The position numbers and the translations under genes are program-made. This document shows positions 15,294 through 15,574 of a stretch of DNA of 64,000 nt, one piece after another. Source of the DNA: Vulcanimicrobiota bacterium (lineage in GTDB: Bacteria > Vulcanimicrobiota > Vulcanimicrobiia > Vulcanimicrobiales > Vulcanimicrobiaceae); NCBI GenBank assembly GCA_963777315.1, contig CAVZQC010000004.1, forward strand, positions 384,001 to 448,000, in the 5' to 3' direction. The notes beneath the pieces were generated by a model. It was not told the DNA's origin, ran no database searches, and saw only the letters and a list, made by a program, of their open reading frames with translations. Each line of letters begins with the position of its first letter. The stretch's first letter is position 1.

Positions 15294-15574
15294 CAATTTG
15301 GGCTCTCCGCGCAAGCGATTGCGCGGCAAACTCATTGCTCATATCGGTGAAACCCGCGATCGTCGCGGGCAATACCGAGGGAAGAACAATCGCCGTCGTA
15401 ATAGACGGGCTAAACCCTAAACGGGCATGCTGCGCGATTGTTCCCTGTAACGACTTCTCGTTTTACCGACGAGGGATGGACGCGCTGCGCATGCGCAAAT
15501 CTATCGCGTTCATAATACGCAATGCTCTCGAAAGAGATGAAGGTATAGTCTAGGCTGCAAGCAATTGCAGAACG
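15294..15574 (+). ncRNA. group I intron at 23S position 2473 (H89), subgroup IA-like, no homing endonuclease
   Basis: Splits CCCCAAGAGT|CCACATCGACGGGGAGG; P1 AGAGU/GCUCU with U-G; P10 CCA/UGG; P3 CATTGC/GCAATG; R GTAACGACT; S AAGGTATAGTCT; extra P7.1/P7.2 helices; P9 CTGCAA-GCAA-TTGCAG; terminal G. Confidence 0.93.

Follow-up and report, generated by a model that had tools for sequence, protein, structure and literature searches.

One of the positions at which bacterial 23S rRNA genes carry introns is L1951 (L standing for large subunit, LSU; positions follow E. coli numbering). The bacterial sites described in the available part of PMC1995217 are L1917, L1931 and L2593, none of them in helix 89, and the available part of PMC11270868 names 1917, 1931, 1952, 2593, 2604 and 2657 for the Candidate Phyla Radiation (CPR). 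According to these same portions of text, the rRNA genes of bacteria outside CPR seldom contain group I introns, which are known from a handful of sites. The present analysis concerns a stretch of 64,000 nucleotides of contig CAVZQC010000004.1 (positions 384,001 to 448,000; hereafter the window) from an uncultured soil bacterium of the Eremiobacterota. Its 23S rRNA gene contains, besides an intron at L1931, a 281-nt insert at L2473. We consider it very likely that this insert is a group I intron without open reading frame (ORF), located directly after U2473 and predicted from its sequence to excise itself from the precursor rRNA. Its ribozyme is homologous to introns of the L2593 type, and an I-SceI-like gene carried by its relatives likely spreads the family.

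The Rfam model RF02541 aligns with the 23S gene end to end and leaves 283 nt unaligned in the helix 89 loop, at 15294-15574 (Table 1). Deletion of 15294-15574 (281 nt) rejoins ...CCCCCAAGAGU with CCACAUCGACGGGGAGG. In E. coli K-12 rrlH (2904 nt), the last base of CCCAAGAGT is 2473, so that the insert lies directly after U2473, at the tip of the helix 89 loop; in the same numbering the last base of CCTAAGGT is 1931 and that of AGAACGT is 2593. The position proposed in a preliminary description of the window, made from the sequence alone, is thus borne out both by the rrlH numbering and by the gap in the LSU alignment. Nucleotides of helix 89 around 2470-2480 are part of the binding site of orthosomycin antibiotics. 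The exact boundary is ambiguous by one base, a C beginning both the intron and the 3' exon, and is settled by the group I rules since U15293 pairs with G15302 and the intron closes with G15574. A G also closes every complete intron listed among the relatives. One 23S gene and one copy of the L2473 intron were found in the host assembly (2.83 Mb, 6 contigs, 89.9% complete).

The insert is far beyond chance, as indicated by its single-sequence fold (minimum free energy z = -4.16 against shuffles) and by homologous inserts at the same site in dozens of genomes. The structure was drawn by hand, with P3/P7 written as a pseudoknot. After removal of 4 exact duplicates, 39 distinct ORF-less introns were aligned. 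Pairs were counted in 30 of them, the excluded sequences being L002, near-identical to the window copy, and eight introns with large insertions; pairing counts given here and in Table 1 refer to these 30 relatives. Standard pairs occupy 94.8% of 2561 cells, compared with 83.0±0.4% in shuffles and 32.5-44.3% with slid partners. Compensatory changes affect 48 of the 88 pairs, and 0 of 500 shuffles attain any of the five measures. P4, P6, P7 and four pairs of P1 are uninformative on covariation because they never vary. The complete P1-P10 fold and the covariation across the relatives confirm the assignment to group I made at the outset. Of the 142 columns with at least 90% conservation, 141 show the family residue in the window copy; the one deviation falls in the L9 loop and leaves it a GNRA loop. 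The core of the window copy shows no sign of decay. GNRA loops cap P2, P8 and P9.

The guide fits both exons, as had also been claimed: P1 AGAGU/GCUCU and P10 UGG/CCA are present and kept in relatives. Four P1 pairs, including the U·G, are invariant (30/30) while the fifth is found in 10/30. The two G-C pairs of P10 occur in 30/30 and 29/30 relatives (with one additional G-U) and its U-A pair in 14/30. In P7, the pair G15452-C15550 is presumably the guanosine-binding pair, by analogy with P7 of Tetrahymena and the group I consensus.

In the 1990 classification of Michel and Westhof, helices P7.1 and P7.2 between P7 and P3' are said to define subgroup IA. In the window intron, two such helices separate the 5' strand of P7 from the 3' strand of P3, in agreement with the preliminary description, and both covary (Table 1). 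P7.1 and P7.2 are named among the class-defining features of group I introns in the available text of PMC3984707. An nhmmer profile (300 positions) built from 30 L2473 introns matches 6/6 L2593 introns of the same class of bacteria (E 1.7e-26 to 3.5e-21), from position 21 to 277-297, yet has no match at E<=10 in the L1931 intron of the window. The idea that the L2473 and L1931 introns have separate origins is upheld by these results. The L2593 introns were sought by pattern over 151 genomes of the class, two of the eight pattern matches (L078 and L079) being chance matches that were dropped. Five genomes contain them, G037 in two copies, and each of the five also carries the L2473 intron.

The two introns of one 23S gene in genome G030 (L007, G030:C12; L073), at L2473 and L2593, are collinear from P2 to P9. 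They share an identical 66-nt block (about 1438-1503 and 1822-1887, beginning in P4' and reaching into P7.2), and this suggests gene conversion between introns separated by 120 nt of exon. For the GISSD IA3 model, the accessible part of PMC6125680 (Nawrocki, Jones & Eddy 2018) describes twelve archaeal hits (IA3.1-IA3.12); all lie at LSU 2593 or 2500, and one has a LAGLIDADG insertion in P6. We read the L2473 ribozyme as IA3-like, putatively a sister lineage of the L2593 introns, set apart by its guide; it counts against this label that it expresses homology to L2593 introns, themselves not classified, and not a score with a GISSD IA3 model. A kinship with phage IA2 introns was considered and rejected. 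The J8/7-P7 motif GAUGAAGRUAUAGUCU is common to at least 125 loci of phage (IMG/VR) contigs, and the match is local only: 13 of these at least 125 loci reach E<=1e-3, the best at 26.4 bits, and at most 71 of 300 positions are covered among the matches listed.

Table 1. Coordinates of the L2473 intron, of its structural elements and of the rRNA genes in the window (wobble pairs are marked by a dot)
Feature	Position	Strand	Remarks
L2473 intron	15294..15574	+	281 nt, ORF-less; LSU gap, RF00028 sub-threshold alignment, covariation, rrlH numbering
P1	15289-93/15302-06	+	exon AGAGU with guide GCUCU; U15293·G15302 wobble at 5' splice site
P10	15299-301/15575-77	+	UGG in P1 loop with first 3' exon bases CCA
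P2 hairpin	15307-14/15319-26	+	GCGA (GNRA) loop; 7/8 pairs compensatory, 100% of cells paired
P3	15333-38/15519-24	+	CAUUGC/GCAAUG; 4/6 pairs compensatory, 100% paired
P4	15344-49/15373-78	+	100% paired, nearly invariant
P5	15353-58/15364-69	+	4/6 pairs compensatory; A-rich J4/5 and J5/4 between P4 and P5
P6	15379-81/15443-45	+	GGG/CCC; region 15379..15445 including extension P6a-P6d; P6a 9/9 pairs compensatory
P7	15450-55/15547-51	+	ACGACU/AGUCU; bulged C15451; all 5 pairs invariant 30/30
P7.1 hairpin	15457-61/15469-73	+	5/5 pairs compensatory, 98% paired
P7.2	15476-84/15505-13	+	inner hairpin P7.2a, conserved AAAUCUAU strand; 5/9 pairs compensatory, 94.8% paired
P8 hairpin	15526-29/15534-37	+	UCUC-GAAA-GAGA
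J8/7 and P7 3' strand	up to 15551	+	J8/7 UGAAGGUAU; invariant core block GAGAUGAAGGUAUAGUCU
P9 hairpin	15555-60/15565-70	+	GCAA loop; 3/6 pairs compensatory; followed by AACG
16S rRNA gene	10115-11616		Rfam; same operon as 23S and 5S
23S rRNA gene	12250..15998	+	Rfam RF02541, 2714.8 bits, full model; 3749 nt with two introns
5S rRNA gene	16097-16213		Rfam
L1931 group I intron	14466..14749	+	284 nt, ORF-less; RF00028 78.6 bits; junctions CCUAAGGU / ...G / AGCGAAAUUCC

Once its two introns are subtracted, the 23S gene is still about 280 nt longer than the E. coli gene. It includes lineage-specific expansions in domain I (window positions around 12530-12610), with inserts of about 15 and 25 nt relative to the Rfam model.

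Comparison of the intron by BLAST with 41 related genomes gave matches in 8, and 7 loci have an insert at the identical exon junction. The 42-nt match in G039 (L008) does not lie at the L2473 site and was discarded. A scan of one genome per species (185,579 species), with the 5' exon and the internal guide as query, yielded 56 loci at L2473. Fifty of these are titled Candidatus Eremiobacteraeota, Eremiobacteria, Vulcanimicrobiota, WPS-2 or Candidatus Cybelea. The other 6 are distributed between Acidobacteriota (twice), Polarisedimenticolia, Pyrinomonadaceae, a deltaproteobacterial metagenome-assembled genome (MAG) and Bdellovibrionales; no CPR bacterium title appears among the 56. Upstream of the intron, the host 23S sequence is 75% identical to that of the window in the Bdellovibrionales and Pyrinomonadaceae loci and 63% identical in the deltaproteobacterial locus. 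Because the exons are only 63-75% identical, these three loci are regarded, on sequence grounds, as real transfers. By contrast, the 23S exon of L045 (JBKPOC010000191.1), titled Acidobacteriota, is 98.2% identical to that of the window, and this locus is probably an Eremiobacterota rRNA contig placed in the wrong bin.

Within the phylum, 401 genomes were sampled and the occupied junction was sought with the pattern CCCAAGAGTN{3,30}GGGCTC. The pattern retrieved 86 genomes, many of them by chance (reversed-pattern controls were non-zero), and 61 were kept on reading the matched strings. The 25 that were dropped have a loop unlike that of the family, and include G053, G155 and G261, which may be real variants. 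The L2473 site is therefore occupied in about 61 of the 401 genomes, 54 in family f1 and 7 in family f3, including the unpublished genome G260. An uninterrupted junction is found in 76 genomes (70 in f1, 5 in f3 and 1 in f12), so that about 45% of the scoreable genomes of the phylum are occupied. The approximately 265 remaining genomes have neither form, most likely because MAGs often lack rRNA genes. Occupied and empty sites coexist inside the same genera; genus g34 contains 20 empty sites. One MAG, G216, exhibits both junctions on different contigs, which may correspond to two rRNA operons in different states, to a mixture of strains or to mis-binning. Five genomes of one genus (G134, G216, G289, G301 and G377) have a 34-nt insertion in the P1 loop, with CTATCACGCGAAAGCCTCCCAGCGTCAA before GGGCTC, and were counted among the 61 on the 5' junction only.

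The window intron was said to contain no endonuclease ORF, and indeed its longest internal ORF (72 aa) lacks a LAGLIDADG motif. A search for ORF-bearing relatives, suggested in the preliminary description, was positive. In 17 of the 56 loci the P6 extension carries an insert of 596-601 nt, which is open across 198 codons in 10 cases and broken by a frameshift or a stop in 7. Two further loci, L026 (441 nt) and L044 (235 nt), retain partial deletions of the endonuclease gene; the remaining ones are ORF-less (36/56) or cut by a contig end (1). Complete ORF-bearing introns measure 808-820 nt (four genomes). The product matches the Pfam profile LAGLIDADG_2 (PF03161) with E-values of 2e-32 to 1e-37 (112.6-129.9 bits for a cut-off of 25). 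The closest solved structure is that of I-SceI (E 6e-16 across residues 11-194), LLGD and MDDG aligning with its two motifs. A metagenome protein collection contains 485 relatives at E<=1e-5. The best 120 of these 485 share 57-100% identity and include no characterised protein name: they are called 'hypothetical protein' or 'LAGLIDADG DNA endonuclease family', save three rows, namely two JGI entries named 'recombination protein RecA' and one NCBI hypothetical protein from Candidatus Rubrimentiphilum.

The end of the gene overlaps the ribozyme core (for example positions 640-700 of the L065 intron). The stop codon is the UAA of the invariant GUAA of J6/7, and the last codons (..MLYKLSL) double as the 3' strands of P6a and P6. 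Since both lie inside the core, coding and RNA-structure constraints overlap there. The likely start, around intron positions 95-100, is GTG in the Acidobacteriota loci and in L023 and ATG in the Bdellovibrionales locus. The same position reads GTA in most Eremiobacterota copies (L065, L066 and others), and gene callers propose products of 174 to 225 aa. Some of the open copies may not be translated. The P6 extension of the window intron itself is 66 nt long, without endonuclease gene, and contains short remnants that align with the two ends of the gene; ORF-less introns retain short pieces alignable to both ends. The two intermediates, L026 and L044, show that the gene is lost by internal deletion. 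The window copy represents the ORF-less end state, which by its sequence is no longer self-mobile. Taken together, the intact, frameshifted, partly deleted and ORF-less forms represent the known cycle of gain, decay and loss of homing endonuclease genes.

Established group I chemistry, with its two transesterifications, suggests the following course. An exogenous guanosine bound in P7 would attack after U15293 in P1, P10 would align the 3' exon, and the freed exon end would attack after G15574, rejoining helix 89. The expected ligated exons are AAGAGU-CCACAUCG. As the only 23S gene found carries both introns, both the L1931 and the L2473 intron would have to be removed to give a working ribosome, that is, two splicing events for this gene. 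Since this gene depends on the ribozyme, the latter is probably still under selection. The lineage itself probably arose by retargeting of a ribozyme of the L2593 type, a scenario suggested by the homology from P2 to P9 with the L2593 introns, only the guide being different. From the way in which such genes work, the enzyme of the relatives is expected to cut intron-less 23S rDNA around 2473 and so to drive homing. The occurrence of occupied and empty sites within genera and the presence of the intron in other phyla bear on homing indirectly.

Several points weigh against the identification of the insert as a self-splicing group I intron. Searched on the insert alone (301 nt), RF00028 does align end to end (model positions 1-253; E 5e-4), which speaks for the identification, but its 23.2 bits are far below the gathering score of 50 bits. 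At the gathering threshold, RF00028 finds no L2473 intron in the whole window or in the 23S gene alone, and a 500-nt search by E-value gave no match either. No single model of this kind is expected to cover the structural diversity of group I introns, and subtype models are used instead, according to the available text of PMC6125680. Both guide helices are short, P1 with no more than 4-5 pairs and P10 with 2-3. The assembly is a metagenome of 89.9% completeness, from which a second, intron-less 23S copy could have been left unassembled. Splicing may also require a protein helper. In a search of public runs, the fraction of sampled words recovered never exceeded 0.46, roughly what the exons contribute. 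Depth over 15310-15509 is zero in three soil metatranscriptome runs and in one DNA run. The check for spliced reads proposed in the preliminary description did reveal reads joined across the intron site, but the DNA run contains them too; they therefore come from intron-less bacteria and say nothing for or against splicing. In a soil metatranscriptome run, X12, a 67-nt contig covers 15526-15592, at the junction of intron and 3' exon, with 2 mismatches and a depth of 5.9, too little to read. It could be an unspliced precursor of a relative or DNA carry-over.

These results also bear on the possibility that the intron is real but not autonomous, requiring a host or intron protein or being a decaying relic in a gene without working rRNA. 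The short P1 and P10 and RNA runs without usable information on splicing are compatible with it. So is the loss of the LAGLIDADG gene from the window copy, some proteins of this kind being maturases (PMC3984707, in its available part). However, the highly conserved columns of the window copy match the family consensus at all but one position, and the ORF-less state of 36/56 loci goes together with compensatory changes in nearly every variable helix. Moreover, no other 23S gene was found in the assembly, and apart from the insert this one scores as a complete LSU. We therefore consider a lack of autonomy unlikely. Far less probable still is a classical bacterial intervening sequence (IVS), removed by RNase III without ligation to leave a fragmented 23S rRNA. 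The helix 89 loop is not known as a place where RNase III removes an IVS, and it would be unusual for the rRNA to be broken next to the peptidyl transferase centre. The insert possesses a full group I core rather than a simple long hairpin; a U·G marks its 5' junction, it ends in G, and its guide fits both exons. It is true that IVSs are the commoner kind of insert in bacterial 23S genes, and they are discussed in PMC11270868; the available part of that paper links RNase III sites only to 23IS2 and 23IS4, whose helices are not named there.

An artefact of assembly or binning, joining parts of different organisms in a chimeric rRNA operon, has to be envisaged since such operons are hard to assemble and bin, as the Acidobacteriota-titled L045 with its 98.2% identical exon illustrates. 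We give this explanation hardly any credence: the window is located inside a long contig (C4, 384001-448000), a genome of the same genus assembled in 3 contigs has the intron at 99% identity, and several loci belong to single-chromosome assemblies of 2.3-3.3 Mb. A more serious alternative leaves the structure untouched and concerns the site, which may already be catalogued (in CRW, GISSD, organelle genomes or as one of the CPR insertions 23IS9-11), the host phylum alone being new. About 100 rDNA sites are known (PMC3679873, available part), and three CPR group I sites lie between about 2000 and 2593, with positions that the available part of PMC11270868 gives in a figure only. On the other hand, position 2473 is absent from the available parts of PMC1995217, PMC6125680, PMC3984707, PMC3679873, PMC1299323 and PMC11270868. 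Neither the titles of the 56 loci (none from CPR) nor the names of the best 120 of 485 endonuclease relatives (none characterised) lead to a described element. We regard a prior record of the site as possible but rather doubtful.

No L2473 intron was found in the full-text literature searches or in the site tables covered, among them the available part of PMC11835236; this coverage extends neither to the CRW and GISSD lists nor to the positions of CPR 23IS9-11. The novelty of the site, proposed in the preliminary description, is thus neither refuted nor proven. Elements of this kind are thoroughly known; the apparent novelty lies in the site, in the combination of L2593-type ribozyme and I-SceI-type gene, and in the prevalence reached within a phylum outside CPR. 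We are inclined, with some reserve, to see in L2473 an unrecorded LSU site by the peptidyl transferase centre, occupied by a family of its own. This family would combine an L2593-type (IA3-like) ribozyme, endowed with a new guide, and an I-SceI-like two-motif enzyme of new predicted specificity. It would occupy close to half of the scoreable Eremiobacterota 23S genes, would have reached Acidobacteriota, Bdellovibrionota and a deltaproteobacterial MAG, and would have undergone gene conversion with an L2593 intron.

A soil phylum outside CPR has such an intron at high frequency, at a site off every list covered, and all stages of the gain, decay and loss of the endonuclease gene occur in one data set, together with what is probably a clear instance of an L2593-type ribozyme turned to another target. 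The family offers a compact natural example of introns and endonucleases changing targets independently. Its enzyme would be a new natural nuclease of the I-SceI family, with a predicted target of about 20 bp in a part of the 23S rDNA that is nearly universal among bacteria, and would be of interest for endonuclease engineering. In practical terms, 23S alignments become longer and are broken by these introns, and binning or probe design that relies on rRNA can be led astray in Eremiobacterota.

Among known systems, the L2593 introns resemble those at L2473 from P2 to P9, including P7.1/P7.2 and the use of the P6 loop as the place of the LAGLIDADG gene. Both have in common the core blocks AUAUCGGUGAAACCC, GGGCAAUACCGAGGGAAG, CCCYGUAACGACU and GAUGAAGRUAUAGUCUA. 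They differ in the guide and in the site: L2473 is in the helix 89 loop, 120 nt upstream of L2593, which belongs to the helix 92/93 region. L2593 introns are known for single-motif genes of the I-CreI type (LAGLIDADG_1), as in Chlamydomonas Cr.LSU with I-CreI. The five L2593 introns considered in this class of bacteria are ORF-less, whereas the gene of the L2473 relatives is a two-motif LAGLIDADG_2. The latter brings them close to the omega intron of the yeast mitochondrial 21S gene, inserted at L2449, and its enzyme I-SceI. Both proteins belong to PF03161, align over nearly their full length and have both catalytic-motif aspartates, and both genes reside in a group I intron of LSU domain V. 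However, L2473 lies 24 nt downstream, and its recognition sequence is therefore predicted to differ from that of I-SceI; the protein is shorter (about 196 aa, against 235) and the host is bacterial, not mitochondrial.

The bacterial 23S introns with LAGLIDADG genes described in Thermotoga, Simkania, Synechococcus and Thermosynechococcus (Haugen et al. 2007, PMC1995217, available part) are likewise of the self-splicing type, inserted at conserved sites and patchy in distribution. They too exist in intact and ORF-less forms, with more than one intron per gene. Their homing endonuclease genes have a single motif in that text, in contrast to the two motifs of the L2473 relatives. A further difference is that nearly half of the scoreable genomes of the phylum have the L2473 site occupied. 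The rRNA insertions of CPR (Patescibacteria) are comparable in being prevalent 23S group I introns, found as ORF-bearing and ORF-less forms at one site and associated with LAGLIDADG proteins, mostly single-domain ones (Tsurumaki et al. 2024, PMC11270868, available part). The L2473 family is distinguished from them by its host phylum, which is not CPR, and by its two-motif enzyme.

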